The notes under the pieces were generated by a model that was not told where the DNA came from, did no database searches, and saw only the letters and a program-made list of their open reading frames with translations. Shown piece by piece: positions 4,301 to 26,819 of a stretch of 32,000 bases of DNA. The first letter of the stretch is position 1; each line of letters begins with the position of its first letter. The stretch spans positions 1,950,001-1,982,000 of the forward strand of contig NZ_CP042911.1 of NCBI RefSeq assembly GCF_008065095.1. The letters are read 5' to 3'. Origin of the DNA: Gemmata obscuriglobus (GTDB lineage: Bacteria > Planctomycetota > Planctomycetia > Gemmatales > Gemmataceae). Both the position numbers and the translations under genes were made by a program.

Positions 4301-5458
4301 ATGTTCACCACCAGCACCCACCCCGGAACGCCAACCATGCACCCAGCTTACCAGCTCTCCGACCAGGCCACGATCTTCAGCCCGGCGCTCGTGTTCTTCC
4401 CGGCGCTCATCAAGCAGAACATCAATCGCGTGGTCGAGATGGCCGGCGGCCCCGCCCGGCTGCGCCCGCACGTCAAAACGCACAAGACGGTCGAAATCGT
4501 CAAACTGCTCCTTGAGGCCGGCGTCACGAAGCACAAGTGCGCGACCATCGCCGAGGCGGAGATGCTGGCGCACGCGGGCGCGCCCGACGTGCTGATCGCG
4601 TACCCGCTGGTCGGACCGAACATTCAGCGGGCCTGCGAGCTGATTCGGAAGTACCCCGGCACCACCTTCTCGGCGCTCATCGACGACGCCACCGCCACCC
4701 GCGCGCTGTCCGCGACGATGGCCGCCGCGGGCCGGACGATCGGGGTGGTCCTCGACCTCGACGTGGGCCAGCACCGCACTGGGATCGCGGTCGGCCCCGG
4801 CGCGCTGGCGCTGTACGAACTCGCGGGCCAGCTCCCGGGGCTGCGCCTCGACGGCTTCCAGCTCTACGACGGCCACAACAGCCAGCCCGACCGCGCCGAG
4901 CGCGAGCAGGCGGTTCGCGCGTTCATCAAGCCGGTGCTCGACCTGCGCGCCGCCGCCGAAGCGAAAGGGCTACCGGTGCCGCGGCTGGTGTGCGGCGGCA
5001 CGCCGAGCTTCCCGGTGTACGCCGCGATGACCGACGTGCCGGGGATCGAGTGCTCGCCGGGGACGTTCGTGCTGCACGACGCCGGGTACGGCCCCAAGTA
5101 CGCGGACCTCGCCGGGATCACCCCCGCCGCGGTGCTGGTCACGCGCGTCATCAGCCGACCCACCCCGAACCGCGTCACGCTCGACCTCGGGAACAAGGCC
5201 GTGGCCGCGGACCCGCTGCTGGAGAAGCGGGTCACGCTGCTCGACTTCCCCGAGTACAAGACGGTGGGCCACAACGAGGAGCACCTCATCGTGGAAACCG
5301 CCGGCGCCGACGCCTACAAGCCGGGCGACGTGGTGTACGCGCTCCCGGGCCACATCTGCCCGACGGTCGCCCTGCACCACCACGTCCTCGTGGCCGAGGG
5401 CGGGAAGGTGGTGGGCAAGTGGGACGTGGCCTCGCGCGTGCGAACGCTGACGGTATAG
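4301..5458 (+). CDS. D-TA family PLP-dependent enzyme (D-threonine aldolase / D-serine dehydratase-like, alanine racemase N-terminal fold)
   Basis: It contains the conserved RPHVKTHKT PLP-lysine motif and family-typical FSPALVFFPALIKQNI and GHICPTVALH segments. The start could be the ATG at 4301 or 4337. The tracked start at 4199 would overlap the divergent gene. Confidence 0.8.
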   Translation: MFTTSTHPGTPTMHPAYQLSDQATIFSPALVFFPALIKQNINRVVEMAGGPARLRPHVKTHKTVEIVKLLLEAGVTKHKCATIAEAEMLAHAGAPDVLIAYPLVGPNIQRACELIRKYPGTTFSALIDDATATRALSATMAAAGRTIGVVLDLDVGQHRTGIAVGPGALALYELAGQLPGLRLDGFQLYDGHNSQPDRAEREQAVRAFIKPVLDLRAAAEAKGLPVPRLVCGGTPSFPVYAAMTDVPGIECSPGTFVLHDAGYGPKYADLAGITPAAVLVTRVISRPTPNRVTLDLGNKAVAADPLLEKRVTLLDFPEYKTVGHNEEHLIVETAGADAYKPGDVVYALPGHICPTVALHHHVLVAEGGKVVGKWDVASRVRTLTV

Positions 5459-6473: not shown

Positions 6474-7634
6474 ATGTCGCAGTTGAACCGCCGCGAATGG
6501 CTCAAGGCCGCCGCCGTCGCGCCCGTCGTGGCTACGGTCTCGGGGGGACTGGCCCTCTCGACCGCCGGCGCCGCCCCCGGCGCCGACGACCTCAAGGCCG
6601 TTGTTGACAAGGCACTCGGCTTTCTGAAGACGGCCCAGAAGGACGACGGGCACTTCTTCGGGCCGATGGGGCCGGTCCCCCAGGCCGAACCGGGACTGAC
6701 CGCGCTCATCGCCGCGGCGCTCGTGCGGGCCGGCGTCCCGGCCGACAACCCGGTGGTCGCGAAGGCCGTCGGGTTCCTCGAAAAGCACGTGCAGAAGGAC
6801 GGCGGGGTGTACATCCGGGGCATGTCGAACTACATGACGTGCCTCGCCATCGTCACATTCAAGGAGATGAACGCCGGGGGCAAGTACGACAAGGTGCTTG
6901 AAGCCGCCGGGAAGTACGTGAAGACCCTCCAGTTCGGCGACGGGCTCACCCCGGACGACCCGAACTTCGGCGGCGCCGGGTACGACAAGCCCGGCACCCG
7001 CGGCGGCCCGGACCTGTCGAACACGCACTTCATGGTCGAGGCGCTCCTGGCCGCCGGCGTGCCGAAGGACGACCCGGCCGTCAAGAACGCGGTGACCTAC
7101 ATCAGCCGGTGCCAGAACCTGGAGAGCGAGTTCAACAAGCAGGAGTTCGCGAAGAAAGCCGACGACGACACCCGCGGCGGGTTCGTGTACAACCCGAGCG
7201 CGTTCAAGGACCCGAAGAGCGACAAGCGCACCGACGCCGGCGGGCTGCGGAGCGAGGGCGGCATGACCTACGCCGGGCTGAAGAGCTTCCTGTACGCCGG
7301 CGTCGGTAAAGACGACAAGCGCGTGCAAGCCGCGGTCGCGTGGATCCGCAAGAACTACACGGTGTCGGCCAACCCTGGCATGAAAGAAAAGGACAGCGGG
7401 CTGTTCTACTATTACCACACGTTCGCGAAGGCGATGGACGCGCTGGGTGAGGACAAGTTCAAGGACGCCAAGGGGGCCGAGCACGACTGGCGGCAGGAGC
7501 TGTTCGACGAGCTGAAGGGTAAGCAGAAGGCGAACGGGAGCTGGGCCAACACGAACCGGGCGTTCCTCGAAACGGAACCGGCGCTGGCCACGGCGTTCGC
7601 AGTGCTGGCGCTCAGCTACTGCAAGAAGAAGTGA
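6474..7634 (+). CDS. Tat-signal prenyltransferase/squalene-oxidase-repeat (alpha-alpha toroid) protein
   Basis: MSQLNRREWLKAAAVAPV is a twin-arginine-type signal. Repeated GG..Y / QxxDGG-like units resemble terpenoid-cyclase/prenyltransferase repeats. A GGAGGG ribosome-binding site lies before the ATG at 6474. Confidence 0.65.
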   Translation: MSQLNRREWLKAAAVAPVVATVSGGLALSTAGAAPGADDLKAVVDKALGFLKTAQKDDGHFFGPMGPVPQAEPGLTALIAAALVRAGVPADNPVVAKAVGFLEKHVQKDGGVYIRGMSNYMTCLAIVTFKEMNAGGKYDKVLEAAGKYVKTLQFGDGLTPDDPNFGGAGYDKPGTRGGPDLSNTHFMVEALLAAGVPKDDPAVKNAVTYISRCQNLESEFNKQEFAKKADDDTRGGFVYNPSAFKDPKSDKRTDAGGLRSEGGMTYAGLKSFLYAGVGKDDKRVQAAVAWIRKNYTVSANPGMKEKDSGLFYYYHTFAKAMDALGEDKFKDAKGAEHDWRQELFDELKGKQKANGSWANTNRAFLETEPALATAFAVLALSYCKKK

Positions 7635-8785: not shown

Positions 8786-9412
8786 ATGTACACACCGCCG
8801 CACTTCGCCGAAGACGACCGAGACGCGCTTCACGACCTGATCGAGCGCTACAGTTTCGGGCTGCTCGTGTCGCGAGTTGCGGGCGAGCCGTTCGCCACCC
8901 ACCTGCCCTTTCTGCTCGACCGCACTGCGGGGCCGTACGGAACGCTCGTCGGACACGTGGCCCGAGCGAACCCGCACTGGCACGACCTGACCGCGGAACC
9001 GGTCCTGGTGGTGTTCAGCGGTCCGCACGCCTACATCTCGCCCGCGTGGTACGAGACCGAGTACGCCGTGCCGACGTGGAACTACGTCGCGGTCCACGCC
9101 ACCGGCCGCGCCGCGCTGGTCGAGGACCACACGGAACTGCTCGACATCGTGCGCCGGAGCGTGAGCTACTACGAAGCGGTGCGCCCGAACCCGTGGGCGC
9201 TGAACGAGTCCGGGCCGTTCGTGGAGCGGTTGCTCCCGCAAATCGTCGGCTTCCGGATCGAGATCGAGCGGCTCGAAGGGAAGAAGAAGTTGAGCCAGAA
9301 CCACCCGCGCGAGCGCCGCGAGAAGGTGATTCAGGCGCTGGAGTTGGACGGCAGCGCAGACGCGGTATCGGTCGCCGCGCTGATGCGCGACACGCTCTCG
9401 AAACCGGCCTGA
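8786..9412 (+). CDS. paiB: FMN-binding negative transcriptional regulator PaiB family protein
   Basis: The N-terminus MYTPPHFAEDDRDALHDLIERYSFGLLVS, the ...GHVARANPHW... segment and ...KLSQNHP... are hallmark PaiB motifs. The length is 208 aa. Confidence 0.85.
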   Translation: MYTPPHFAEDDRDALHDLIERYSFGLLVSRVAGEPFATHLPFLLDRTAGPYGTLVGHVARANPHWHDLTAEPVLVVFSGPHAYISPAWYETEYAVPTWNYVAVHATGRAALVEDHTELLDIVRRSVSYYEAVRPNPWALNESGPFVERLLPQIVGFRIEIERLEGKKKLSQNHPRERREKVIQALELDGSADAVSVAALMRDTLSKPA

Positions 9413-10374
9413 CACTCCAGAGCGGCGAACAGCCCGCTCACGCTCTCGATGCGCTTGACGCGGTCGAAGTGCGCGAAGCTCCCGAACTGCGACGCGAGCC
9501 GCAACCACTGCTTGAGCCGGCTCACGTTCTTGTCGGACCGGAGCATGTCGAAGCGGTGCGACCACTCGACCAGATTCCGCAGTTGCGCGGCCCAATCGAA
9601 CGGCTCGTCGGTCTCCTCAACGGGTGGCACCAGCCCGAGTTCGGCCGCAACACGGCGGGCGAGCCGCGGGTCGGCGAGCGCGCCGCGACCGAGCATGAAG
9701 TGTTTGCACCCGGTCACGTCGCGGCACCGTTTGAAATCCTCGACGGTCCAGATGTCGCCGTTCGCGACAACCGGGATGCCGAGCCGCTCGCGCACCCGCC
9801 CAATGGGCTCCCAGTGGATCGGCGGCGCGTACCCCGCGACCCGCGTTCGTCCGTGAATGGTGATCCACGCCGCCCCGCCCTCCGCGGCCATCGTGGCGTT
9901 CTCGTGGATGGCGTCGAGTGTGTCCCAGCCGAGCCGTAGCTTTGCCGAAACGGGAACGTGGGGCGGGAGCGCCGCGCGGATGGCCCCGACGATCTCACGA
10001 ATCCGCAAGGGGTGCCGCAGGAGGGCCGCGCCGCCGTCGTGCCGGTTCACGGTCGGGGCCGGGCACCCGAAGTTCACATCAACGGCGGTCGCCCCGAGTT
10101 CGTGAGCGCGGACCGCCGACTCTGCCATCCGCCCCGAATCCCCGCCGAGGAGTTGCACCTGAACCGGCAGCCCCGTGAGGGTGGCCGCACCGGTGCGGAG
10201 TTCGGGCACGTGGTCGTGGAACACGTGCCGCGGCGGAACCGCGTGGCTGACCCGCAGGAACTCGGTAACGGCGTAGGTGAACGCGCCGGTCGCCCCCTGA
10301 ACGGCCCGCATGGGCGCGTCAGTGACGCCTTCCATCGGCGCGAGCGCGAGCGCTGGTGTATCCGGGTGGAGCAT
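9331..10374 (-). CDS. tRNA-dihydrouridine synthase (Dus family, DusC-like)
   Basis: It contains LAPMEGVTDAPMR, VDVNFGCP (the catalytic Cys region), TIHGRTR and ANGDI motifs. The 3' end overlaps paiB convergently by 82 bp. Confidence 0.85.
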   Translation of the reverse strand: MLHPDTPALALAPMEGVTDAPMRAVQGATGAFTYAVTEFLRVSHAVPPRHVFHDHVPELRTGAATLTGLPVQVQLLGGDSGRMAESAVRAHELGATAVDVNFGCPAPTVNRHDGGAALLRHPLRIREIVGAIRAALPPHVPVSAKLRLGWDTLDAIHENATMAAEGGAAWITIHGRTRVAGYAPPIHWEPIGRVRERLGIPVVANGDIWTVEDFKRCRDVTGCKHFMLGRGALADPRLARRVAAELGLVPPVEETDEPFDWAAQLRNLVEWSHRFDMLRSDKNVSRLKQWLRLASQFGSFAHFDRVKRIESVSGLFAALECQAGFESVSRISAATDTASALPSNSSA

Positions 10375-10577
10375 GGGTGTAGTGTACCGCGCCCCGCGCC
10401 CTGCGAAGTGATTGCCCGGTCGGGCCGTGCGCCAGAAACCGGCCCCGCACCCTGGTCTCTTGGTGTTATGTTTTTAGAATTCGTAACACAGATGGGCGGG
10501 TAGACCTCACCTCTGATTAGCTTCCGTCCCCGACTCCAGCGGTTGCCGTCCCGGCGCACGGCCTGAGGACGAACACG

Positions 10578-10679
10578 ATGGGCTATTACCGCCCGGTGCC
10601 GCGGCGGCCGTTCAACCCCGTTCTCGCGCTCGTGGCCGCTGCCGTGCTGGTGGTAGTGGTCTTGCTCTCGCGCCCGTGA
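10578..10679 (+). CDS. possible 33-aa single-pass membrane peptide
   Basis: The translation is MGYYRPVPRRPFNPVLALVAAAVLVVVVLLSRP, preceded by a GAGGA motif. It is too short to be confident. Confidence 0.2.
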   Translation: MGYYRPVPRRPFNPVLALVAAAVLVVVVLLSRP

Positions 10680-10796
10680 CGGGTGATGTTCCGCGAACGG
10701 TTACAAGTGCGCGATTTGGTCTTTTGTGCTTGTGACATAGAAATTCCAGTCTGCGCCACAAGAAACAGACACAGTCTATCGATTATGTTGTTGAAA

Positions 10797-11040
10797 CTAC
10801 TCCTCGGACGCCGCGGCTCCAGTTACGCCGAGCTGGTAGGCGGATACGCGGCGCTCGAAGAAGTTGGTCAGCTCCTGCACGTCTTGCAGGTCCATGAAGC
10901 CGAACGGATTCTTGGTCCCGAACACGGGGGCGATGCCGAGCGACTCCAACCGCCGGTCCGCTGCGTACTCCGGGTAGCTGCGGAGGTCCCTACACGACAA
11001 CCCGGCCACGCCCAACCGCCACTCGCGGCGGCGAGCCGCG
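10797..11040 (-). pseudogene. nrdB: 5'-truncated duplicate of the nrdB 3' end (last ~75-80 codons)
   Basis: GVAGLSCRDLRSYPEYAADRRLESLGIAPVFGTKNPFGFMDLQDVQELTNFFERRVSAYQLGVTGA aligns with the C-terminus of the intact nrdB (16285-16530). By eye I count about 11 mismatches over about 168 nt in the core, including a 58-nt identical block. There is no upstream nrdB sequence and no start. Confidence 0.85.
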
Positions 11041-11136
11041 CGGACCAGCTACGGGCACCATGTGGAGCCCGACACACGGGCTTCACCACTGCGGACCACA
11101 CGCCCACCGCCGCCCGCGCTGCAGAACGCGAGGGCG

Positions 11137-11215
11137 GCCGAACAATGAACTCACCTGCACCGCCATCATCGGATGAGCGGTGCGTTCCAAGTCAGCCGGC
11201 GGCGCCCGGTTCGGC
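11137..11215 (-). repeat. attC-like repeat R1 (distal end of array; inner right arm partly deleted)
   Basis: It reads GCCGAAC-aatgaac-tcacctgcaccgcc...ggatgagcggtg...gccggcggcg-cccg-GTTCGGC. The stop of cassette A lies inside it. Confidence 0.65.
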
Positions 11216-11611
11216 GCCTGGGGCCACGCCGTCAGGCCGCGCCCGCCGACGCAACGGTCCCCGCCCCTTGAGACCGGCGACCGGTGCTCGCTCCGCCGGT
11301 TCGTCTACCTCGCCGGGCGGGAGCACCCGGAGGGACAGCACGTCGCCCGCCCGCAACTCCCCGCCGAGCCATTCCAACGTCTCGGACCGAGTCGTGTCAA
11401 GCGCCCCCAGTCCGTACTCGAACTCGCCCCCGGCCCACGACTCGGGAGTGAACCCCGGAGTGGCCAGCATCTCAGGAGTCAGCCGCGCCGGGTCGCGGCG
11501 CGCCCACGACAAGAAGAAATCCATCAGCCCGAGGTCGCTAACGGCCGCAGTCGTTACCACCCGCCCGTTCACCGACACCTCCAGCCGGTTGTTCTGCCCG
11601 CTCGACGACAT
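11192..11611 (-). CDS. cassette A hypothetical protein (139 aa)
   Basis: The ATG at 11611 follows a GGAGG with a 9-nt spacer and lies 32 nt from repeat R2. The product begins MSSSGQNNRLEVSVNGRVV.... The longer tracked ORF (to 11989) runs through R2 and cassette B. Confidence 0.55.
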   Translation of the reverse strand: MSSSGQNNRLEVSVNGRVVTTAAVSDLGLMDFFLSWARRDPARLTPEMLATPGFTPESWAGGEFEYGLGALDTTRSETLEWLGGELRAGDVLSLRVLPPGEVDEPAERAPVAGLKGRGPLRRRARPDGVAPGAEPGAAG

Positions 11612-11643
11612 CCGCTGCGGCCTCCATAACTCTCGAGTTCCTT

Positions 11644-11736
11644 GCCGGCCATAAAGCTCACCAGCCGCGCCACCCGCGTTCGGTGCTGGAAACAACCTCT
11701 GCGCCGCGGTCCGGTGCGGCGTCGGGTTGGGCCGGC
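11644..11736 (-). repeat. attC-like repeat R2 (degenerate)
   Basis: gccggccataaagctcaccagccgcgcc...ggtccggtgcggcgtcgggttgggccggc aligns with both arms of the consensus. The cores have mutated to GCCGGCC/GGCCGGC. Confidence 0.5.
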
Positions 11737-12263
11737 TACCTCTCGCTCTGGAGGGCGTAGTCCAGCCCCAGCCCCCGAAGCGCGGCTTCGTCGAGGGGTT
11801 GCTTGTCTGCCGCATCCAGGAGGCTCGGCCGCCACGACCCGCCCCCGAATACCCACGACCCGCCCCGGACGCGGGCGGCCGCACCCTCGTACCAGGCGAC
11901 CCGCCACCGGCCGGTGGCCCCGCCGAGCAGCACCCCGACCCGCACGGCGCTCGCCCAGCGCACCGACCCCCCGTGCGGGCCGGCTTCACCGCCCCAACGA
12001 TAGCTGGCGGTACACCTGTCGGGGTGCATCGTGAACGGGAACACCTTGGCGAGCGACCAGGGCATCAGCACCGGGCCGCCGGGCCGGTCGGCGACCAGGC
12101 ACACGAACGCCGTGTCGGCCGGTACGTCCCGCACCTCGACGGCAACCTCGTCGTAGGGGTATAAGTACAGACGGACGAAGTACCCGAGGGCCAAGACGGC
12201 AGTAACGCCGATGGCGCGACCGGCCTTCAACCGCCACCTCGAGCGCTCCCGCTTTGCGTCCAC
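11736..12263 (-). CDS. cassette B N-terminally membrane-anchored hypothetical protein (~175 aa)
   Basis: The GTG at 12263 lies 5-6 nt after a GAGGG. The N-terminus is basic, followed by the hydrophobic helix AIGVTAVLALGYFVRLYLY. The TAG stop abuts R2. Confidence 0.55.
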   Translation of the reverse strand: MDAKRERSRWRLKAGRAIGVTAVLALGYFVRLYLYPYDEVAVEVRDVPADTAFVCLVADRPGGPVLMPWSLAKVFPFTMHPDRCTASYRWGGEAGPHGGSVRWASAVRVGVLLGGATGRWRVAWYEGAAARVRGGSWVFGGGSWRPSLLDAADKQPLDEAALRGLGLDYALQSER

Positions 12264-12278
12264 AGGCGCCCTCGGGTG

Positions 12279-12368
12279 GCCGAAAACCAAGCTCACCAGC
12301 ACCGCCCCCTACAAGCGAGCGATGCGCCCCGATCCGCGGGCGGTGTCGGGTGCCGCGCCGGGTTCGGC
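12279..12368 (-). repeat. attC-like repeat R3
   Basis: It reads GCCGAAA-accaagc-tcaccagcaccgcc...gcgggcggtgtcgggtg-ccgcgccgg-GTTCGGC. Confidence 0.65.
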
Positions 12369-12377
12369 CTACTCGCG

Positions 12378-12812
12378 CTAAGTGTAACCGAACGGCCTGA
12401 GCATCTCCAGGAACGCATCCGACTTCTGCGGCGGACAGGCCAGAACCGCGGCGACGAACTCTTCGGGCGGCTGGTACTGATGGTCCTCGACGTAATGGAC
12501 GATCAACTCCGGCGCGACGTACACCACCGACATGGACGGGATCCAGAAGTTCCGCGCGCCGCCGGCGCGGTCGGCCCCCGGAGCGGGGTGCGAGCAAAGC
12601 TCACAGAAGTGCGGCCCCATCGCCAGTACCGGCTGCCAGGAGTCGTAGGCGTGCGCGCGAAGGGCGGCCGAGAAGCCCGGTGGCACGGGGCCGGTGGGGA
12701 ACGAGTGGTCCGGGTGAAGCCACCCGACCGCGCGAACGTGGTCGCCTCGATCCACTTGGCACGTCGTCCCGAGATCTGGGAAGAACATGGCGACAACCTC
12801 GCAGTTCGGCAC
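12378..12812 (-). CDS. cassette C hypothetical protein (144 aa) with an HFCELC motif
   Basis: The composition looks coding (…VYVAPELIVHYVEDHQYQPPEEFVAAVLACP…). The stop lies 9 nt from R3. The start is the ATG at 12812 or the Met 8 codons further in. Confidence 0.6.
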   Translation of the reverse strand: MPNCEVVAMFFPDLGTTCQVDRGDHVRAVGWLHPDHSFPTGPVPPGFSAALRAHAYDSWQPVLAMGPHFCELCSHPAPGADRAGGARNFWIPSMSVVYVAPELIVHYVEDHQYQPPEEFVAAVLACPPQKSDAFLEMLRPFGYT

Positions 12813-12831
12813 GGCAAGTGGCCTTCTGGTG

Positions 12832-12927
12832 GCCGAACGATGAACAAACCTGCCGGCGGGGCTGAGTGAGCTGTGAACCTGGAAAAGCTTACATGCCCCG
12901 CCGGTCTGGGGCGGCGCTTGGGGCGGC
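12832..12927 (-). repeat. attC-like repeat R3b (divergent)
   Basis: It starts with the conserved GCCGAAC-gatgaac. It has its own inner stem (cctgccggcgggg / ccccgccggtctgg). The right core has degenerated (cttggggcggc). Confidence 0.45.
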
Positions 12928-12936
12928 GTCTGCGGC

Positions 12937-13242
12937 TCACCCCGCCGGCCGTCGGCAGTGCGGGCAGCACAGGTCGGTGAAGTCGTCAGGGCTGATGCCG
13001 CCGCCCTCGTTCCCGGACTCCGGGATGACGACCACCACCGGCCCGTGAGCCGGGCAGGTGAGGGCGGCGAACGCCCCGCCCGGCTCGGCTTCCACCCCGG
13101 ACCACCCGCACCACGGGCACTCGGTCACTGGTGGCCCGCCCGCGGTGGCGACGAGTTGGAGCCAGTTGCACTCCGGGCACCGGAGCCGCGACACCGGGTG
13201 GGCGGTCACGGGTTGGTGCCGCCAACCAGACGCTTCCGCCAT
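12937..13242 (-). CDS. cassette D Cys-rich zinc-ribbon-like protein (101 aa)
   Basis: It has CPECNW, CPWCGW, CPAHG and CCPHCRR pairs. The ATG at 13242 is preceded by GTTCGGC-GGAGGG-cgcacgg, that is, the repeat core, then the Shine-Dalgarno motif, then the start. Confidence 0.6.
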   Translation of the reverse strand: MAEASGWRHQPVTAHPVSRLRCPECNWLQLVATAGGPPVTECPWCGWSGVEAEPGGAFAALTCPAHGPVVVVIPESGNEGGGISPDDFTDLCCPHCRRPAG

Positions 13243-13255
13243 CCGTGCGCCCTCC

Positions 13256-13346
13256 GCCGAACGATGAACTCACCTGCGCCGCCACCACCGGATGAGCGGT
13301 GCGTCCCGAATCCGCGGGCGGTTTCAGGTGCCGCGCCGAGTTCGGC
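13256..13346 (-). repeat. attC-like repeat R4
   Basis: It reads GCCGAAC-gatgaac-tcacctgcgccgcc-accaccggatgagcggtgcgt...gcgggcggtttcaggtg-ccgcgccga-GTTCGGC. Confidence 0.7.
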
Positions 13347-13485
13347 TCGTCTTTGAGCGGTTCTCACGCTGCATCAGGCGAGTAAGTGGTGCGATGGTCG
13401 GCAAGGACATCTGCCCTCGTGATGCCACCGAACACACGGGCGAACTCGCTAATCAAATCCCTTACAGAGACTAACTCCCCCTCGA

Positions 13486-13911
13486 TCAGGAATTTGAGGT
13501 CCGGCGGTGTGACCCAATCCCCGCAATCGAATTTTCAGCGTGAACTGGAACGGACTTGCCGCGAAGTTCCTGCTTGGCAAACGGCATCCGGAGGAAGCCT
13601 AACCGGTGTTTGAGTCCGTGCAGCTCCTGTACAACTCGCTGAGAAAAACACTGCTTTGCTTGGCACATGGTCCGGACGATTTCGTAGGCTCCGATTACCC
13701 ATAACCAGATTCGGCCGTAGCAGCAACTGATATCGATGCTCAGCACCGCCCCTTTCCCTGTCTCAACGTTCGGCGAAATGCCAGTGTCGAGCCGCGCAAG
13801 AATTTCCACACCCAGCTCTCGAATTATTCGACTTTGGCTATCGACATATATAGAGAAAATGACGAGTGGATTATTGTTGAGCATATCCTCAGCGATTGAG
13901 GTTGCTTCCAT
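13486..13911 (-). CDS. cassette E hypothetical protein; low-GC, probably frameshifted (reading continues to 13364 in another frame)
   Basis: A GAGGA motif precedes the ATG at 13911. This region is markedly lower in GC than its neighbours. A second frame, open from 13534 to 13367, encodes DWVTPPDLKFLIEGELVSVRDLISEFARVFGGITRADVLADHRTTYSPDAA and stops 18 nt from R4. Confidence 0.5.
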   Translation of the reverse strand: MEATSIAEDMLNNNPLVIFSIYVDSQSRIIRELGVEILARLDTGISPNVETGKGAVLSIDISCCYGRIWLWVIGAYEIVRTMCQAKQCFSQRVVQELHGLKHRLGFLRMPFAKQELRGKSVPVHAENSIAGIGSHRRTSNS

Positions 13912-13989
13912 TTCAGAGTCCTCGCAGTTGACTTGGTTGCCTTAAACTAAATGGAGCCTCCCAAACAAAGCAAGGTTCGCCTTTCTCTT

Positions 13990-14080
13990 GCCGAACAATG
14001 AACTCACCGGCACTGCCATCATCCGATAAGCGGTGCGTCCCAACTCAGCCGGCGGTGTCAGGCGCAGCGCCGGGTTCGGC
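13990..14080 (-). repeat. attC-like repeat R5
   Basis: It reads GCCGAAC-aatgaac-tcaccggcactgcc...gccggcggtgtcaggcg-cagcgccgg-GTTCGGC. Confidence 0.7.
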
Positions 14081-14134
14081 CATGCCCCCACATGTCGGTG
14101 ACATCACTCAGATGTCCCGCTACCTGGTTCGGGG

Positions 14135-14524
14135 TCACCCGCGTCCCTGCCGCAGACGCTCCAACTCCTCTCGCAACCGCCGGTTCTCCGCCTCCAGTGA
14201 AGTCATGGTGTCGGTGGCGGGTGCGGGCCGCTCTGCGTACCTCACGATCCGGTCCTCGGTGAAGTACACTCCGGTCCACATACTCGTCTTGCAGTGGGCC
14301 TCGTGCTCATTGCCGTCGCGGTCGAGGTAACGGACGCCGTAGATGCGGTCGCTCTTCTCGCCGAACCAGCCGGGGCCAAAAGGTGACCAACTCGAGTCCA
14401 GCACCTTGCCGCCCCGCTCTTCGACGTACTGCCTGATCCGGTCGTGGTCCATCCCCCCGGCCGCGAGCCGGATCATGATGCCGACCACGATCACGACAGG
14501 GATGAGTAGGAAGAAACCTTCCAC
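14135..14524 (-). CDS. cassette F small membrane-anchored protein with C-terminal coiled coil (129 aa)
   Basis: The GTG at 14524 lies 7 nt after AGGGGG, just past R6. It has a transmembrane helix (FFLLIPVVIVVGIMI), then DHDRIRQYVEERGGKV...CKTSMWTGVYFTED, then LEAENRRLREELERL. The longer tracked ORF runs through R6. Confidence 0.55.
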   Translation of the reverse strand: MEGFFLLIPVVIVVGIMIRLAAGGMDHDRIRQYVEERGGKVLDSSWSPFGPGWFGEKSDRIYGVRYLDRDGNEHEAHCKTSMWTGVYFTEDRIVRYAERPAPATDTMTSLEAENRRLREELERLRQGRG

Positions 14525-14541
14525 CGCTGCGCCCCCTAGTG

Positions 14542-14633
14542 GCTGAACATCAAACCCGCCGACACCGCCACCGCTCGGATGAGCGGTGTGTCCCAAGTCT
14601 GCCGGCGGTGTCAGGTGCCGCGACGGGTTCGGC
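14542..14633 (-). repeat. attC-like repeat R6
   Basis: It reads GCTGAAC-atcaaac-ccgccgacaccgcc...ggatgagcggtg...gccggcggtgtcaggtg-ccgcgacgg-GTTCGGC. Confidence 0.65.
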
Positions 14634-14645
14634 CGCCGGAGGATG

Positions 14646-15029
14646 CTACCCTCTTCGCTTGGCGACGGGACAGCCAAGCAGCGACGGCAACTCCCGCTCC
14701 AACGCGCTCACCAACGGCGACGCCTCTGCCGCCCAGAAGACTGACACGTCGGTAGTCGCGCCCGCCAGCGCTCCGGTGAGGAACGCCCACTCGCCGGCGT
14801 CCCTGATCTCGTGGACCTGAGTGACGTTAACACCGACCACAGTGCCGCGGGCCTCGCCCCACGACCACTCGCCGCACCAGTTCCGCTCACCGTCGTACTC
14901 GAACGCGGGCAGGCCAAGCGCCTCGCCCCGCCAGCCCGCGAGCAACTCACAGACCCGATCGAGGTCACACCCAGCCACGGCGAAGTGACGGGCGGATGTG
15001 TACCGGGGATCGCTCCCAATCGCTACCAC
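14646..15029 (-). CDS. cassette G hypothetical cytoplasmic protein (127 aa)
   Basis: The GTG at 15029 lies 9 nt after GGGGGAGGG, directly following the R7 core. The TAG stop lies 12 nt from R6. The tracked N-terminus (MTAVLVSSSFGGGG) is a translated repeat. Confidence 0.5.
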   Translation of the reverse strand: MVAIGSDPRYTSARHFAVAGCDLDRVCELLAGWRGEALGLPAFEYDGERNWCGEWSWGEARGTVVGVNVTQVHEIRDAGEWAFLTGALAGATTDVSVFWAAEASPLVSALERELPSLLGCPVAKRRG

Positions 15030-15047
15030 GCCGCGAAGCCCTCCCCC

Positions 15048-15138
15048 GCCGAACGATGAACTCACCAACACCGCCGTCACCGGATGAGAGAAGCGTCCCG
15101 AATCAGCCGGCGGTGTCAGGTGCCGCGCCGGGTTCGGC
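15048..15138 (-). repeat. attC-like repeat R7
   Basis: It reads GCCGAAC-gatgaac-tcaccaacaccgcc...gccggcggtgtcaggtg-ccgcgccgg-GTTCGGC. Confidence 0.7.
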
Positions 15139-15236
15139 TCTCCACGTTACCCCTTGCCCAGCACCAGGTCCACCACCCGGCACCCGCGGACGTGAGGCGC
15201 CGGGCCGCGGCAGTGTTTCTAGGAGGGGTGAACGGG

Positions 15237-15743
15237 CTACTTGGCCGGCGGGGTGTAGGGCTCGACCAGAGGGTAGGTACGCTTGTCGATCGTGACCGTG
15301 TCCCAGACGCGCAGCCACGGCGCGTCCGGCGTCACCCCGCCTCCGACCTTCAGCCCGGCGGTCGGATGGCGCAGCACGAACGTGCCGTAGCACAGGACCA
15401 GGCCCCCGCCCTGGACGGGCACCCAGTGGGACGGAGCGTGGACCAGCGCCCGCTCGGCGTCCAGGATCTGCACCACCCCGAACTCCCGCAGCGGGGTCGG
15501 CGCCTCCCCCTTGGCCTTCTCGTACCCGAGCGGGCCGGCGGTCCCCACCTTCATCTTCTCGGCGAACACGAACGGCACGGCCGTCACGTCCTCCAACCGC
15601 TTCAGCTCGGCCTCCTTGGCGGCGAGCTGCGCCCGCAGGTCGGCCACTTCCTTATGCAACTGCGCGGCCTTCTCCCTGCGGTCGGCACCGCCGGCCGTGG
15701 TGGCGAAACACACCAGCGACAGGGCACAGATCATTCGGAACAT
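15237..15743 (-). CDS. cassette H (promoter-proximal) secreted coiled-coil protein (168 aa)
   Basis: A strong AAGGAGG lies 5 nt before the ATG at 15743. The N-terminus MFRMICALSLVCFATTAGGA looks like a signal peptide, followed by a heptad-like segment (AQLHKEVADLRAQLAAKEAELKRLE). Confidence 0.7.
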   Translation of the reverse strand: MFRMICALSLVCFATTAGGADRREKAAQLHKEVADLRAQLAAKEAELKRLEDVTAVPFVFAEKMKVGTAGPLGYEKAKGEAPTPLREFGVVQILDAERALVHAPSHWVPVQGGGLVLCYGTFVLRHPTAGLKVGGGVTPDAPWLRVWDTVTIDKRTYPLVEPYTPPAK

Positions 15744-15764
15744 GTGAGCCTCCTTACAGTTGGT

Positions 15765-15776
15765 TGCGAACGATGA
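15765..15776 (-). repeat. isolated half-site TGCGAAC-GATGA at the first-cassette junction (attI/cassette-junction-like)
   Basis: It matches only the core and the first spacer bases of the repeat family. No palindromic partner follows. It lies 21 nt upstream of the cassette H start. Confidence 0.4.
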
Positions 15777-15858
15777 GCCCGTCGGACGGCTGGCCCGGCG
15801 GGTCTAAAACTCTACGCCAGGTCTCGCTTGGCGACAATTGCGAAGTGCCGCACGCCCG

Positions 15859-15897
15859 CCACAGAAGGCCGCGGCCATCGCCCTCGGCCTTCTGTGG
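15859..15897. other. hairpin with a perfect 13-bp stem, abutting a GCCGAACCAG core copy
   Basis: ccacagaaggccg (15859-15871) pairs with cggccttctgtgg (15885-15897). A GCCGAAC core begins at 15897. Confidence 0.6.
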
Positions 15898-15937
15898 CCG
15901 AACCAGTGTTTAGTGCTCGAAGCACCGTGCCCGCATT

Positions 15938-15979
15938 CTCAAGACTGGTAAGAGTCTGTAAGTTCTTACCAGTCTTGAG
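15938..15979. other. perfect 16-bp inverted repeat with a 10-nt loop
   Basis: ctcaagactggtaaga (15938-15953) pairs with tcttaccagtcttgag (15964-15979). Neither strand has a flanking U-tract, so it is not a classical terminator. Confidence 0.6.
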
Positions 15980-16124
15980 CACGAACCGCAAGAGGCTACC
16001 GGGGCAACAGCGCGTCGCGTGAAGGCTGTGTGAAGATTCCTTGCGTGCGGCCGCCGAACCAGCCTCCAGCGCGCCACACCCACTCCGCGCGATCGATCGT
16101 CAGTGCCGGTGCACCGTGCGACAG

Positions 16125-16185
16125 TAAATAATACAAGCGGAAGTGATGTCAATAGTGGCAATTGTCGCAGTCATTTATTATAGCA
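16125..16185 (-). promoter_or_regulatory. AT-rich island with sigma70-like promoter motifs pointing into the cassette array
   Basis: The minus strand carries TGCTATAAT, an extended -10 (16185-16177), and TTGACA-N16-TATTTA (16152-16125). It is the only AT-rich patch between the nrdB stop and cassette H. The Planctomycete promoter consensus is poorly known. Confidence 0.35.
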
Positions 16186-16284
16186 CGGCGGAACGAGATA
16201 CACATCGGGCAGAATCACCGGGGGTCGAGGGCCGTGGCGGCCAGACGGACCTCATCCATGCGTATCACACGCGCCGCCTTAATA

Positions 16285-17283
16285 TCAGAACTCTTCCTCG
16301 AACGCCACGGCGCCGGTTACGCCGAGCTGGTAGGCGGACACCCGGCGTTCGAAGAAGTTGGTCAGCTCCTGCACGTCTTGCAGGTCCATGAAGCCGAACG
16401 GATTCTTAGCCCCGAACACCGGGGCGATGCCGAGCGACTCCAGCCGCCGGTCCGCCACGTACTCCAGGTAGCTGCGCAGGTCCGCCAGCGACAAGCCCGC
16501 GACCCCCTGGCCCAGCACGTCGCGGGCGAATGCGGTCTCACACTCGACCGCCTCGCGCAGCATCGCCACGATCTGCGCTTCCAGTTCCGCGTCGAACAGG
16601 TCCGGCTCCTCGCGCCGCACCGTGTCGATCACCCGGAACGCGAACGCCATGTGCGCGCTCTCGTCCCGGAACACCCAGTTGGTGCCGGTCGCCAGCCCGT
16701 GCAACAGCCCCTTCGAGCGCAGGAAGTACACGTAAGCGAACGCCGCGAAGAAGAACAGCCCCTCGATGCACGCCGCGAAGCACACCAGGTTCAGCAGGAA
16801 CGCGCGGCGGTGCGCCCGGGTTTCCAGCCGGTCCAGCCCCTCGATGGAGTCGATCCACTTGAAGCAGAAATCGGCCTTCAGCTTGATGGACGGGATGTTG
16901 TCCACCGCGGCGAACGCGGCCTCGCGTGCGGCCATGTCCGGCAGGTAGTTGTCGAGCAGCGTGAGGTAAAACTGGACGTGCAGCGCCTCCTCGTAAAGCT
17001 GTCGCGACAGGTACATCCGCGCCTCCGGCGCGTTCACGTGCTTGTACAGGTTCAGCACCAGGTTGTTGCCGACGATCGAATCCCCGGTGGCGAAGAACGC
17101 GACCAGCCGGTGAATCAGGTGCCGCTCGGCGGGCGTCACCCGCCCCCGCAGGTCCGCGAGGTCGGTGGAGAAGTCCACCTCGTCCACGGTCCAGGTGTTC
17201 TTGATCGCGTCCTTGTACATCTCGAAGAACGGCGGGTAGCGCATCGGGCGCAGGGTCAGACTCATTCCGGGATCGAGGAGCAT
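16285..17283 (-). CDS. nrdB: class I ribonucleoside-diphosphate reductase beta subunit (R2)
   Basis: It has the ferritin-like di-iron motifs FFATGDSIV and EEALHVQFY, the latter being ExxH with Tyr at H+4 (the radical position). It also has the EGLFFFAAFA and DESAHMAF segments. A GGAGG lies 7 nt before the ATG at 17283. Confidence 0.9.
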   Translation of the reverse strand: MLLDPGMSLTLRPMRYPPFFEMYKDAIKNTWTVDEVDFSTDLADLRGRVTPAERHLIHRLVAFFATGDSIVGNNLVLNLYKHVNAPEARMYLSRQLYEEALHVQFYLTLLDNYLPDMAAREAAFAAVDNIPSIKLKADFCFKWIDSIEGLDRLETRAHRRAFLLNLVCFAACIEGLFFFAAFAYVYFLRSKGLLHGLATGTNWVFRDESAHMAFAFRVIDTVRREEPDLFDAELEAQIVAMLREAVECETAFARDVLGQGVAGLSLADLRSYLEYVADRRLESLGIAPVFGAKNPFGFMDLQDVQELTNFFERRVSAYQLGVTGAVAFEEEF

Positions 17284-17330: not shown

Positions 17331-17553
17331 GTGGTTGCGTTGACCGAGACTGTCGAACGATGGGCGGATGGATGTGGCTGCGTTTTGGTCCGTGCCGCCC
17401 TCGCGCTTACGAAGACAATTTTTGACAGGATCAACAGGATAGACAGGATGAAGGCAGACAAATTTTAAATCCTGCTGATCCTGTTAATCCTGTCAACAAC
17501 TCTTTAGTTTTCATCAAGCCTTGACGCCGAACACCCTTATCTCGGGCTGGCTG
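17331..17553 (+). repeat. ~223-bp repeat, tandem copy 1 (palindrome arms 17422-17449 / 17469-17496)
   Basis: It aligns along its whole length with 17554-17780. The palindrome core is TTGACAGGATcaACAGGATagACAGGAT ... ATCCTGctgATCCTGTtaATCCTGTCAA. Confidence 0.8.
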
Positions 17554-17810
17554 TGGTTGCGTTAACCGAGACTCTCGAACAGGGGCGGAATGGGCGGATG
17601 GTCGTGGCTGCGTTTTGGTCCGTGCCGCCCTCGTGCTTACGAAGGCAGTTTTTGACAGGATCAACAGGATAAACAGGATGAAGGCAGATGAATTCTAAAT
17701 CCTGTTTATCCTGTTGATCCTGTCAAAATATTCTTGGCTCCTTCAACGAGTTTTGGTGCCACGCCCTCATCTCGGGCCGCCGCGCCAACACGAGCGGGGC
17801 TCATTCCGCC
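17554..17810 (+). repeat. ~223-bp repeat, tandem copy 2 (perfect 28-bp arms 17652-17679 / 17699-17726) plus the shared right flank
   Basis: TTGACAGGATCAACAGGATAAACAGGAT is exactly reverse-complementary to ATCCTGTTTATCCTGTTGATCCTGTCAA. The right flank agcggggctcattccgcc is shared with copy 0 at 7868-7888. Confidence 0.8.
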
Positions 17811-17860: not shown

Positions 17861-20254
17861 TCACTGGCACGCCTCGCACGCGCCGGGGTTTTCGAGCGAG
17901 CAGGAGACCGCCGACGTGTCGGCCGGCGCGGCGGTCGGCGTCACGGTCGTCTTCGCGATGGCGGTCGCCGGCCGCGAGCGCAGGTAGTACGTGGTCTTGA
18001 GCCCCTTCTTCCACGCGTGCATGTACATCGACGACATCTTGCCGATGGTCGGGCTCTCCAGGAACAGGTTCAGCGACTGGCTCTGGTCGATGAACGGCCC
18101 GCGCTCGGCTGCCATGTCGATGAGCCCCCGCTGCGGCACCTCCCACGCCGTCCGGTACACCGCACGCAGCCCCGCGGGCAGCTCCGAAAGTGACTGAACC
18201 GAGCCGTCGGCGAGCTTGATCTTCGTGCGGACCGCGTCGGTCCACAGCCCGAGCGCCTTGAGATCGTCCACCAGATAGCGGTTCACCTGAAGAAACTCGC
18301 CGGACAGCGTCTCCCGCTTGAACAGGTTCGACACCTGCGGCTCCACGCACTCGTAGGCGCCCACAATCGACGCGATGGTGGCCGTCGGCGCGATCGCGAC
18401 CAGCAGCGAGTTGCGGAGCCCGGTCGTGCGCACCCGCTCCCGCAGCGCCGCCCAGCGGGCCGGGTCGGTCGGCTCCACGCCCCACAGATCGAACTGAAGT
18501 ACACCGGCCGCGGCGCGGGTGCTCGCGAACGACGGGTGCGGCCCCCGCGCCGCCGCCAACTCGCAGGAGGTCGCCAGCGCGTGGTAGTAAATCTCCTCCT
18601 GAATGCGCCGGGACAGCTCGCGCGCGGCGGGGGCGTCGAACGGTAGCTTCAGTTTGAAGAACACGTCCTGAAGCCCCATCACCCCGAGCCCGACCGGACG
18701 CCACCGGGCGTTCGACGCCGCGGCCTCCGGGGTGGGGTAGAAGTTCACGTCCACGACGCGATCGAGGAACCGCACCGCCGTGCGGACCGTCTCGGCCAGC
18801 GCGGCGAAATCGAACCCGTCGCGCGTCACGTGCCGGGCCAGGTTCACCGAACCGAGGTTGCACACCGCGGTCTCACCGGCCGATGTCACCTCGACGATCT
18901 CGGTACACAGGTTGGAACTGTGGACGACCGCGCCCGGCTCGGCGGTCTGGTTGCACGCGCGGTTGCAGGCGTCCTTGAAGGTCATCCACCCGTTGCCGGT
19001 CTCGGCCAGCGTCTTCATCATCCGCGCGTACAGGTCGCGGGCCGGCACCGACTTCACGGCCAGGCCTTTTGCCTCGGCGTCGGTGTAGGCCGCGTCGAAG
19101 GCGGCGCCGAACAGGTCGGTCAGGTGCGGGACGGCTTTCGGGTCGAACAGCGACCACGGCTCGCCCGCCTCGACGCGCCGCATGAACAGGTCCGGCACCC
19201 AGTTGGCGAGGTTCAGGTTGTACGTGCGCCGGGCCGGGTCGCCGGTGTTGTCGCGCAGCTCCAGGAACTCTTCCACGTCCGCGTGCCACGTCTCCAGGTA
19301 CACGCAGCACGCGCCCTTGCGCTTCCCGCCCTGGTTCACCGCCGCCACCGACGAGTCGAGCGTCTTGAGCCACGGGACGATGCCGTTGCTGTGCCCGTTG
19401 GTGCCGCGGATCAGCGACCCGCGCGAGCGGATGCGGTGGTACGCCAGCCCGATCCCGCCGGCAAACTTCGACAACTTCGCAACGTCGGCATACCGGTCGT
19501 AAATGGCTTCGAGGGCATCGGCGGGAGAATCCAGCAGGTAGCACGAGGACATCTGCGGCCGCGCGGTGCCGGAGTTGAACAGCGTCGGGGTGCTGGGCAG
19601 GTAACGGTGCGCGGACATCAGCCGGTAGAGTTCGATCGCGTCCGCGGCGGACTCGGCCAGCCCGCACGCCACCCGCAGGAAGAAGAACGCCGGCGTCTCG
19701 ATGACGTGGCGCGTGTCGGGGTGCCGGAGCAGGTACCGGTCGTACACGGTGCGCAGCCCGAAGTACTCGAACAGGTCCGGCGCGGGCTCGGCGGCGGCGG
19801 CGTTGAGCTTGCGGGCGTTGGCGGCGACGAACGCCATCGTCCCTCCGGCGACCAGCCCGTGCCGGTACCCGGCCGCGATCGACTGCGAGAACGAATGAAC
19901 GTCCTGGTTCGCAACCTCCTTATCGACGTAGGTCGCGAGCAACCGGGCCGCGAGCCGCGAGTACTCCGGCTCCTCCGAAATGAGTCCGGCGGCGGTCTGG
20001 ATCGAGAGGCGGTCGAGTTCGGCGGTGGTGGCCCCGTCGTACAGCCCGCCGATGGTCTTCACCGCGACCCGCATCGGGTCCACGCCGGGGAGCCCGCCGC
20101 TGCACCGCTGCACCGCGCGGACGATCTTGTTCACGTTAACGTCTTCGAGCGCGCCGCTCCGCTTGCGGACCTGCATGAGCGACGGCGAATCGGGGAGCCG
20201 CGGGCGCCCCGCGGGCGGGGGAGTGATTGTGAGGTCGATGGCGGGGGTGGTCAC
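17861..20254 (-). CDS. nrdA: class I ribonucleoside-diphosphate reductase alpha subunit (R1)
   Basis: It contains LYDGATTAELD, PTLFNSGT, SSCYL, NLCTEI (the catalytic Cys/Asn/Glu region) and the C-terminal YYLRS...CxxC tail (CSLENPGACEACQ). The GTG at 20254 lies 6 nt after GGAG. The ATG at 20176 (MQVRKRSG) is an alternative start. The tracked start at 20446 would read through the riboswitch. Confidence 0.9.
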   Translation of the reverse strand: MTTPAIDLTITPPPAGRPRLPDSPSLMQVRKRSGALEDVNVNKIVRAVQRCSGGLPGVDPMRVAVKTIGGLYDGATTAELDRLSIQTAAGLISEEPEYSRLAARLLATYVDKEVANQDVHSFSQSIAAGYRHGLVAGGTMAFVAANARKLNAAAAEPAPDLFEYFGLRTVYDRYLLRHPDTRHVIETPAFFFLRVACGLAESAADAIELYRLMSAHRYLPSTPTLFNSGTARPQMSSCYLLDSPADALEAIYDRYADVAKLSKFAGGIGLAYHRIRSRGSLIRGTNGHSNGIVPWLKTLDSSVAAVNQGGKRKGACCVYLETWHADVEEFLELRDNTGDPARRTYNLNLANWVPDLFMRRVEAGEPWSLFDPKAVPHLTDLFGAAFDAAYTDAEAKGLAVKSVPARDLYARMMKTLAETGNGWMTFKDACNRACNQTAEPGAVVHSSNLCTEIVEVTSAGETAVCNLGSVNLARHVTRDGFDFAALAETVRTAVRFLDRVVDVNFYPTPEAAASNARWRPVGLGVMGLQDVFFKLKLPFDAPAARELSRRIQEEIYYHALATSCELAAARGPHPSFASTRAAAGVLQFDLWGVEPTDPARWAALRERVRTTGLRNSLLVAIAPTATIASIVGAYECVEPQVSNLFKRETLSGEFLQVNRYLVDDLKALGLWTDAVRTKIKLADGSVQSLSELPAGLRAVYRTAWEVPQRGLIDMAAERGPFIDQSQSLNLFLESPTIGKMSSMYMHAWKKGLKTTYYLRSRPATAIAKTTVTPTAAPADTSAVSCSLENPGACEACQ

Positions 20255-20294: not shown

Positions 20295-20394
20295 ACAGGC
20301 GGATGGGTACGTGCGCGAGCGCACGTGTGCCGGCCGCCCGCCGCCTTCCCCTCGAAGGCACGGGTGTGTCCGCGCGGCGCAGGGTGTGCGCGGC

Positions 20395-20590
20395 GCGGGT
20401 CGGCGGCAGGTCTTCGGACTTCGGGCGGGTGCGGCGAACCGCACACCTACTGGCCGTCGCTTCCCGGCCCACCTGGGCCAGTGCGTGTGACGGCGGTCGT
20501 TCCCGTTACCGCTGCGTGGGGCAGTCCCGGATTTCCACCGGGTTCCCTTTTAGTCAGCCGCGCGAGGCGCGGCCGAACCGACGACAATCA
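20395..20590 (-). promoter_or_regulatory. cobalamin (AdoCbl/B12) riboswitch in the nrdA leader
   Basis: The minus strand reads AAAAGGGAACCCGGUGGAAAUCCGGGACUGCCCCACGCAGCGGUAACGGGAA...CACUGGCCCAGGUGGGCCGGGAAG...GAAGUCCGAAGACCUGCCGCC. This covers the conserved core (AGGGAA-CCGGUG-AAAUCCGG-ACUG-CCC...GUAA), the CACUGG...GGGAAG pairing elements and a B12 box (AGUCCGAAGACCUGCC). Confidence 0.8.
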
Positions 20591-21092
20591 CCATCATCGG
20601 CGTTCCGCGCTGCCGGCCGCAACCAAATCCGCGCGCCGGGGCAAACGGGGCGCCGCGGGTACGGGGCAGGCAAGCCATGCGCGTTACGCGGGTTGGAACC
20701 GGTTGCGGCGCTGTAACGGGGGTTACAGCGCCACGTCAGCGACCCGACTGGACATCCGCTACCCATTCGCTGGTCGTTCGGTGGCAGTTCGCTGGGGCAC
20801 AGCTACCACCGAATCCCACACCCCCAAGCACAGGAGCGGGGCACCGAGACGACAGAGTTCGAACGCGGTAATTGGGACTCAATGCGTTCAATTCAAACGA
20901 GTTGCGGCGAATTTTATGTGCAGGCGAGTTCGCTTTTCGGGCACGAATGCGGTGCCGACCGCTTGCCCGGAACCGGTCGCGGGGAGTGGAAAACTTCTGG
21001 AAGCTCTAAATGGGGGAAATGCGGTGGGGAAATGCCCGATGTGCCGAACGCGCGACCCGCGGCAACGCAGCGAACGGCACCGGTACAGCGGG

Positions 21093-26803: not shown

Positions 26804-26819
26804 TGGTGCCATTGGGTGA

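Follow-up and report, generated by a model that had tools for sequence, protein, structure and literature searches.

A decayed second nrdB 3' end at the edge of an integrase-less cassette array in Gemmata obscuriglobus

In E. coli, the element e14 is flanked by icd and the pseudogene icdC (PMC13626634, citing Hill et al., 1989). Clusters of attC sites without an integron integrase (CALINs) represent a different type of arrangement; they are common and their origin is not settled (Cury et al., 2016; PMC4889954). Tn7-like elements in Acinetobacter are directed by TniQ to an attachment site in nrdB (PMC11014353). The locus analyzed here, located in a 32-kb window of Gemmata obscuriglobus to which all positions refer and read on the minus strand, shares features with each of these systems. 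The 3' end of its nrdB gene, which codes for the small subunit of class I ribonucleotide reductase, is present twice, and the two copies bracket an array of eight gene cassettes. No publication was found that links Gemmata with integrons or attC sites or that describes this locus. The duplication alone is a well-understood kind of scar and the kinds of element involved are known, but their combination is unusual. The most fitting interpretation is that an old replacement of the gene 3' end left its scar beside a dynamic cassette array that lacks an integrase.

A repeat search revealed one direct repeat pair of 219 nt (10795-11013 versus 16289-16507) with 88% identity, in agreement with a MAFFT alignment and with an ungapped comparison in fixed register. 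The duplicated part of the nrdB 3' end measures ~220 nt and has the same orientation in both places, with the second, orphan copy situated 5.5 kb downstream of the intact gene. Copy B (16289-16513, minus strand) comprises the functional last ~73 codons of nrdB (16285-17283, minus strand; 332 aa; Pfam PF00268, E = 4.8e-77), and copy A (10795-11019, minus strand) is an orphan, 5'-truncated fragment. Similarity begins near 11019 and 16513, at about codon 260, and is lost in the stop codon region (10797 and 16291). With NrdB as the query, tblastn found only two matches in the window, the whole gene and the orphan, which matches residues 260-332 with 89% amino acid identity (E = 4e-38). Nothing recognizable of codons 1-259 was detected in the window next to the orphan and, consequently, a decayed second gene is not recognizable there. 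The orphan ORF (open reading frame; 10797-11015) is annotated by NCBI as a 70-aa “RNR subunit beta” (P0121) and matches PF00268 over profile positions 245-281 only. The longest identical run between the copies spans 59 nt (10855-10913 and 16349-16407). The C-termini read GAVAFEEEF in the intact protein and GAAASEE in the orphan, a difference that is explained by V to A and F to S replacements together with a GAG to TAG nonsense mutation, which places the orphan stop two codons before the original one. A first-pass annotation of the sequence had described the same-orientation duplication, its end at the stop codons, the 5' truncation, an identical stretch estimated at 58 nt and the differing C-termini; all of these are borne out, and the nonsense mutation now accounts for the early stop. 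The downstream flanks of the two copies are unrelated to each other. The exact NrdB protein occurs only in the G. obscuriglobus assemblies CP025958 and ABGO01000157 (100% identity), and the 2008 draft (ABGO01000157) and the complete genome (CP025958) show the same structure with 99.95% identity across 18.7 kb, which excludes an assembly artefact. In CP025958.1, the window corresponds to ~6.04-6.06 Mb.

This arrangement resembles icd-e14/phage 21-icdC of strain K-12, in which the intact gene uses the incoming 3' end, a 5'-truncated pseudogene in the same orientation lies at the opposite end, and the two copies are non-identical. In contrast to e14, which carries its own integrase and excises, no recombinase was found in the insert or in the scanned ORFs of the window. 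The cargo is a cassette array and the event is old. Moreover, the orphan has decayed so far that recombining back would give a truncated NrdB.

The history of the two copies was reconstructed from 222 aligned nt, for which the genes of Gemmata strains JC717 and JC673, four other Gemmata genes and Singulisphaera were included and differences were polarized by parsimony. Copy B is identical to the gene end of JC673 and 94.7% identical to that of JC717. Twelve changes fall on the orphan branch, four of them synonymous and eight non-synonymous (L to R, A to G, L to P, V to A, A to T, V to A, F to S and the nonsense change GAG to TAG), and L to P, V to A and F to S affect positions that are conserved in the nearest relatives compared. 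The non-synonymous share on this branch amounts to 67%, compared with 75% expected for random changes in this sequence. On the intact branches, the ratio of non-synonymous to synonymous changes is 1:13, which differs significantly from the 8:4 of the orphan (Fisher p = 0.003). Given this near-neutral substitution ratio, unlike that of the intact branches, the orphan is a neutrally decaying, non-functional pseudogene relic. Three further changes, all synonymous, are derived in all three intact genes while the orphan retains the outgroup state. Six are specific to G. obscuriglobus and JC673, whose 3' ends are identical in this segment, and five of these are synonymous; the polarization of another five changes is ambiguous.

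The orphan exhibits the states RRLESLG and NPFGF that characterize the G. obscuriglobus group, whereas other Gemmataceae carry RRLEALG and NPFDF. It is therefore derived from the nrdB gene of this lineage itself. As the three synonymous sites are derived only in the intact genes, the two copies split before the three species diverged. At formation, at most 3-8 of 216 sites separated them, corresponding to ~96-99% identity. Consequently, the present 12% divergence reflects decay and not a foreign donor. The diverged, nrdB-like donor proposed in the first-pass annotation is contradicted by this polarization, which assigns most of the differences to the decaying orphan branch.

The region between the two copies contains the cassette array. 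A covariance model (R1) built from 18 repeats of three species detected eight attC-like sites in the window, all on the minus strand between 11137 and 15138 (E = 1e-21 to 8e-5) and none elsewhere in the window, which matches the eight cassettes counted in the first-pass annotation. Two of the eight sites were absent from the training set of the model, and variants with quite different centres were still detected. In the direction of reading, the sites are located at 15048-15138, 14542-14633, 13990-14080, 13256-13346, 12832-12927, 12279-12368, 11644-11732 and 11137-11224. The sites are ~90 nt in length and bounded by GCCGAAC and GTTCGGC, with one paired position deviating from the RYYYAAC/GTTRRRY consensus, and they fold into imperfect hairpins with compensatory changes at 7 of 15 predicted pairs. 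One short ORF precedes each site (gene calls at 15237-15743, 14646-15080, 14135-14524, 13486-13911, 12937-13242, 12378-12812, 11736-12230 and 11192-11611, all on the minus strand); the ORF at 12378-12812 belongs to DUF7919 and the others show no Pfam family. The fourth cassette (13486-13911) has a G+C content of ~51%, as opposed to 65-72% in the region, and is missing from both sister species, so that it looks like a recent foreign acquisition.

The eight sites are imperfect palindromes, one per cassette, and no integron integrase was identified nearby among the scanned ORFs of the 32-kb window, where no intI gene adjoins the array. In the terms of IntegronFinder, the array is a CALIN. It shares with CALINs the same-strand attC-like sites, each with a single short ORF that mostly lacks a functional annotation, and the absence of intI within ~10 kb. 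It differs from them in that its starting junction is conserved in three species with differing first cassettes, which is the behavior of attI and not of a stranded array fragment, and in being bracketed by a gene-end duplication. The homogeneous attC family, the species-level cassette turnover and the co-oriented cassettes past a fixed junction are reminiscent of a sedentary chromosomal integron. In contrast to such integrons, nrdB and a 381-nt spacer occupy the usual position of intI, and no integrase remnant was found in the ORFs of the spacer or near the orphan. No member of this attC family was encountered beyond the genomes of the three Gemmata species, and a metagenome scan with a 19-mer of the attC consensus returned 13 matches, all attributable to chance, without further attC similarity or nrdB.

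The 381-nt spacer that follows the nrdB stop codon (15904-16284, minus strand) is 84-87% identical in JC717 and JC673. It contains, ~100 nt past the stop codon, the sequence TGCTATAAT (16177-16185, minus strand), which resembles an extended -10 element and points into the array. The box is conserved and reads TGCTATAGT in JC717. Judged by its sequence, it could be a promoter for the cassettes; a scan of 10400-16700 for consensus sigma-70 elements revealed no full promoter. Further downstream, a perfect hairpin with a 16-bp stem (CTCAAGACTGGTAAGA / TCTTACCAGTCTTGAG) and a 10-nt loop (15938-15979, -24.6 kcal/mol) is the same in all three species, against differences of 13-25% in the neighboring sequence. 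It is located ~35 nt ahead of the junction and yielded no match in Rfam or in a metagenome scan. Rfam covariance models detected nothing in the spacer and the array, and the window as a whole gave only a cobalamin riboswitch and spurious matches to palindromes. The three-species comparison places the attI-like junction, CACTAAACACTG|GTTCGGC, at 15897-15915 on the minus strand, with the heptamer at 15897-15903. The sister loci carry it at 4747-4765 of L083 (JC717) and 11368-11386 of L084 (JC673). Sequences are conserved up to the junction in all three species and differ immediately thereafter, with a different first cassette in each. This pattern suggests that the junction behaves like attI and would be served by an integrase encoded outside the window.

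The NrdB proteins of JC717 and JC673 are 99% identical to that of G. obscuriglobus, and both strains share its nrdB, spacer and junction. Their arrays contain six (JC717) and nine (JC673) attC sites according to model R1. Only two cassettes, the DUF7919 cassette and one coding for 101 aa, are common to all three species, while JC717 and JC673 additionally share a SnoaL-like and a 153-aa cassette. Differences occur at proximal, internal and distal positions. The presence of different cassettes at one shared junction indicates that the array was reshuffled since the species separated. The proposal that everything between the nrdB copies arrived as one insertion is therefore not tenable for the cassettes, and since both sister species have the array without the orphan, the bracket is not needed for the array. 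The proposed integration is old and the present cassettes are not its original cargo.

The last attC site is truncated in both JC arrays, covering model positions 20-73 (L083 8145-8198 in JC717), and the distal site in L084 of JC673 (16066-16144) scores as low as its JC717 counterpart. The truncated site runs into ~1 kb of unrelated, initially AT-rich sequence, with a 150-aa ORF in JC717, and the two strains share this distal array end with 97% identity. The start of the distal end within a truncated attC site points to a secondary rearrangement, which makes a secondary loss of the orphan in JC717 and JC673 plausible, though not proven.

The explanation that we favor, at about even chances, holds that the orphan is the original nrdB end, displaced by an integration that replaced the 3' end of the gene. 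In or near the ancestor of G. obscuriglobus, JC717 and JC673, DNA that carried near-identical last ~73 nrdB codons, followed by a spacer with an attI-like recruitment site, would have joined into the end of nrdB. This may have occurred through one Campbell-type crossover with a circle, or through a homologous crossover on the left combined with illegitimate joining on the right. By using the incoming end, the essential gene would have been kept whole, and the old end, left downstream with its own 3' flank, would have decayed neutrally since, as in the icd-e14-icdC arrangement of E. coli. Integron-type recombination, with the integrase supplied from outside the 32-kb window, would later have built and reshuffled cassettes at the junction (15897-15903) and between attC sites, whereby array growth pushed the nrdB copies 5.5 kb apart. 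JC717 and JC673 would subsequently have lost the orphan as the distal array end was truncated and replaced. The Campbell-type insertion put forward in the first-pass annotation is thus reasonable for the origin of the scar, as the architecture fits, but neither its diverged donor nor the cassettes as cargo can be retained.

The architecture argues for this explanation: the similarity starts within the gene and ends at the stop codon, the reading frame is whole and the flanks are unrelated, which is the pattern of an incoming replacement gene end. Direct repeats are found at both ends of the insert and the similarity ends at the gene end. Between the R' core of the last attC site and the orphan lie ~117-120 nt (11020-11136, minus strand), and 116 nt follow the orphan stop (10681-10796, minus strand), which bear no relation to the spacer behind intact nrdB and are a candidate for the original nrdB 3' flank. 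Neither stretch has a match in the fetched Gemmataceae loci, and the 116-nt flank is also unmatched in 80 nrdB loci of other phyla. As the DNA past the last attC core of an integron represents the old right side, the order before the array would have been nrdB, spacer, junction, ~120 nt and orphan. The original insert may accordingly have measured only ~0.5 kb, corresponding to the spacer and the 120 nt after the last attC site. The topology of the event, and the arrival of spacer and junction with the insert, are deduced from this arrangement. A plain tandem duplication was rejected, as the second copy of the spacer that it predicts downstream of the orphan is absent.

Several observations weigh against this explanation. 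Pfam identified no integrase or transposase domains in the cassette ORFs, the spacer ORFs or the long ORFs of the window, and hence no recombinase gene in the insert. An empty site, which the first-pass annotation had suggested looking for among relatives, was not found in the fetched nrdB and dus loci of Gemmataceae, among which close relatives are thinly sampled. The orphan is absent from JC717 and JC673, and parsimony scarcely favors a loss over an acquisition by G. obscuriglobus alone. The three-species tree is star-like, mosaic and recombining, with 2-5% divergence and inconsistent pairings, and it does not resolve a sister pair. The polarization counts (12, 3 and 6 sites) are small. Furthermore, the differences between the copies are uneven: the 59-nt identical run is unexpected for 26 differences in 216 nt (simulation, p ~0.004), and none of the changes of the orphan itself fall in its central 94 nt. 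Simple decay does not predict this distribution, which could be due to a short gene-conversion tract, a maintained recombination core or chance. Finally, the nrdAB context differs on both sides between this clade and other Gemmata, so that a larger rearrangement could have made the fragment.

A rearrangement of this kind, either a relocation of nrdAB to dus or the replacement of a second nrdAB, would have left a 220-nt stub through segmental duplication or an illegitimate join, without a circular element or any targeting of nrdB, and the array would have arrived independently. In the more distant Gemmata, namely SH-PL17, the genome LR593886, strain G18 and one metagenome-assembled genome (MAG), nrdAB lies in another neighborhood: genes for a toxin-antitoxin pair and a peptidase come after nrdB, and neither array nor orphan is present beside it. 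In the nearest outgroup by Dus (91% amino acid identity), genes for rhodanese and HDOD proteins, not nrdB, are located upstream of dus. Such altered flanks, the near-identity of the copies when they formed, as would be expected of a source within the genome, and the lack of a recombinase gene among the ORFs scanned are all compatible with a rearrangement. Nevertheless, limits at the stop codon together with a preserved frame would be a coincidence for a random breakpoint, the second spacer required after the orphan by a simple tandem duplication is missing, and no nrdB sequence upstream of codon 260 survives. We therefore consider this scenario unlikely, but a serious rival all the same.

The restriction of the orphan to G. 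obscuriglobus also allows for the import of the orphan, its flanks and the two distal cassettes (11192-12230) from another Gemmata after the species split, by horizontal transfer or recombination. The mosaic nature of the locus among the three species and the distal end shared by the JC strains (97% identity) are consistent with such an import, which is silent on how the array first arrived. Yet the distal end of the JC arrays begins in a broken attC site and so represents the derived state, no known process puts a gene 3' fragment behind a complete attC site, and the decay of 5.6-7.9% on the orphan branch is in keeping with an origin no later than the species split. These points render an import distinctly unlikely.

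A more far-reaching possibility is that the junction is a working attI with its integrase elsewhere, that the repeat is the footprint of an integrase-less platform, made up of spacer, promoter-like box, hairpin and attI, that was transplanted into the end of an essential gene, and that the locus, along with the Acidimicrobiales and Blastocatellia islands described below, represents an undescribed class of recombinase-less islands landing on the nrdB 3' end. We regard this combination as improbable. The Tn7-like elements of Acinetobacter likewise use the conserved nrdB end as a landing pad and place accessory DNA just downstream. Insertion of Tn7-like elements leaves a 5-bp duplication, whereas 220 nt of the gene are duplicated here and no tns genes were present among the ORFs scanned. 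No transposase or TniQ domains were detected in the ORFs scanned from nrdB to dus; terminal repeats were not specifically searched.

The 80 nrdB loci of other phyla were listed from a scan of a genome collection, Gemmata itself not being among them, and 2 of the 80 carry the nrdB end a second time, in the same orientation and with the repeat ending precisely at the stop codon. In an Acidimicrobiales MAG (L039, 10895-10996 and 13858-13959), the last 102 nt of nrdB are repeated 2.9 kb downstream with 99% identity and the repeats bracket genes for a membrane protein and a glyoxalase-like protein, without an integrase. In a Blastocatellia MAG (L069, ~4999-5077 and 6556-6634), the last 79 nt are repeated 1.4 kb downstream with 80% identity, bracketing an ATPase and a VapBC-like pair, again without an integrase; a putative IS110-type transposase, recognized from sequence alone, follows the second copy. 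Together with the Tn7-like elements of Acinetobacter, these repeats make the conserved nrdB end seem a recurrent landing place. A scan of viral contigs for nrdB C-terminal fragments that might correspond to attP yielded 73 matches, all of them full-length genes and none fragment-only or duplicated. The best non-self match to the orphan peptide (P0123) was discarded, as it proved to be an nrdB gene with a frameshift from a nanopore assembly. A stand-alone, 92-aa NrdB C-terminal ORF (P0154; L093-L096, 10001-10279) occurs on at least nine long contigs and is not preceded by nrdB in the 10 kb upstream of it, and many other short NrdB C-terminal proteins are found on long contigs in the protein database. 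As a stand-alone fragment without a neighboring nrdB, P0154 is uninformative as a clue to the mechanism.

The heptamer GTTCGGC occurs on the coding strand of both copies, in the PFGF codons (10899-10905 and 16393-16399), as stated in the first-pass annotation, which had considered it a possible secondary recombination site. If the integron integrase had made the duplication by recombining attC or attI with this heptamer, its identity with the attC R' core, its equal orientation in both copies and its position within the 59-nt run would be explained, and, in the relatives compared, the Gly codon that creates it is confined to this clade and a single further lineage of Gemmataceae. On the other hand, an attC site should abut GTTCGGC, while the orphan reaches ~110 nt further upstream, unrelated DNA of ~120 nt separates it from the last attC site and the heptamer does not mark the boundary of the duplication. 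The window contains GTTCGGC 37 times, compared with 13 expected from shuffling for the whole window. About 20 of these occurrences lie outside the array region, in ~26 kb (about one per 1.3 kb), so that one is expected by chance in a 1-kb gene. In addition, the PFGF-encoding Gemmataceae lineage P0012 has no array after nrdB, which also rules out PFGF or GTTCGGC as a marker of the array. An origin through the heptamer is thus very improbable.

Least credible of all, and hardly to be entertained, is a functional small gene, for example for a C-terminal NrdB peptide that regulates the reductase by competing for binding to NrdA, since the open frame, the annotated protein, the stand-alone C-terminal ORFs on long contigs such as P0154 and the fact that small-subunit C-terminal peptides inhibit class I reductases are outweighed by the neutral substitution pattern, the absence from both sister species, the F to S change in AF(E/G)EEF and the loss of the last two residues, including the terminal F that is conserved in the relatives examined.

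On the minus strand, the genomic context comprises a cobalamin riboswitch, nrdA, an intergenic region of 577 nt, nrdB, the 381-nt spacer, eight cassettes, the ~120 nt without match, the orphan, the 116-nt flank, a convergent 33-aa ORF on the plus strand and dus. The riboswitch (20388-20597, minus strand; Rfam, 95.9 bits) is located upstream of nrdA (17861-20176, minus strand; Pfam and gene call, 771 aa) and implies B12-dependent repression of the class I reductase; a B12-dependent alternative reductase is probably encoded elsewhere in the genome. The nrdA-nrdB intergenic region is unusually long and contains 1.8 copies of a 230-nt unit (17360-17777, 84% identity) whose copy number varies among the three species. 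Each unit carries a 31-nt inverted repeat that causes spurious Rfam microRNA matches. On the right-hand side, the conserved flank is formed by dus, which codes for a tRNA-dihydrouridine synthase (9331-10374, minus strand; Pfam PF01207) and is 98-99% identical in JC717 and JC673. The 33-aa hydrophobic ORF (MGYYRPVPRRPFNPVLALVAAAVLVVVVLLSRP; 10578-10679, plus strand), convergent with the array, is kept in both strains and synteny resumes exactly at its stop (10672). The nearest outgroup locus showed no sequence homologous to this region. Two adjacent, large paralogous proteins with DUF4394, Calx-beta and FG-GAP repeats are encoded at 23664-29024 on the minus strand.

The locus thus preserves a datable footprint, a displaced gene end, at the edge of an integrase-less array, and in three close genomes the array starts at one conserved junction with different cassettes. 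Recombination between the two nrdB copies would rebuild nrdB with a truncated and mutated C-terminus, and array loss by this route would presumably be counter-selected. If the junction is a true attI that is served in trans, a recruitment platform would be separable from its integrase and still recruit genes, and its anchoring in the end of an essential gene would explain the stability of the platform.

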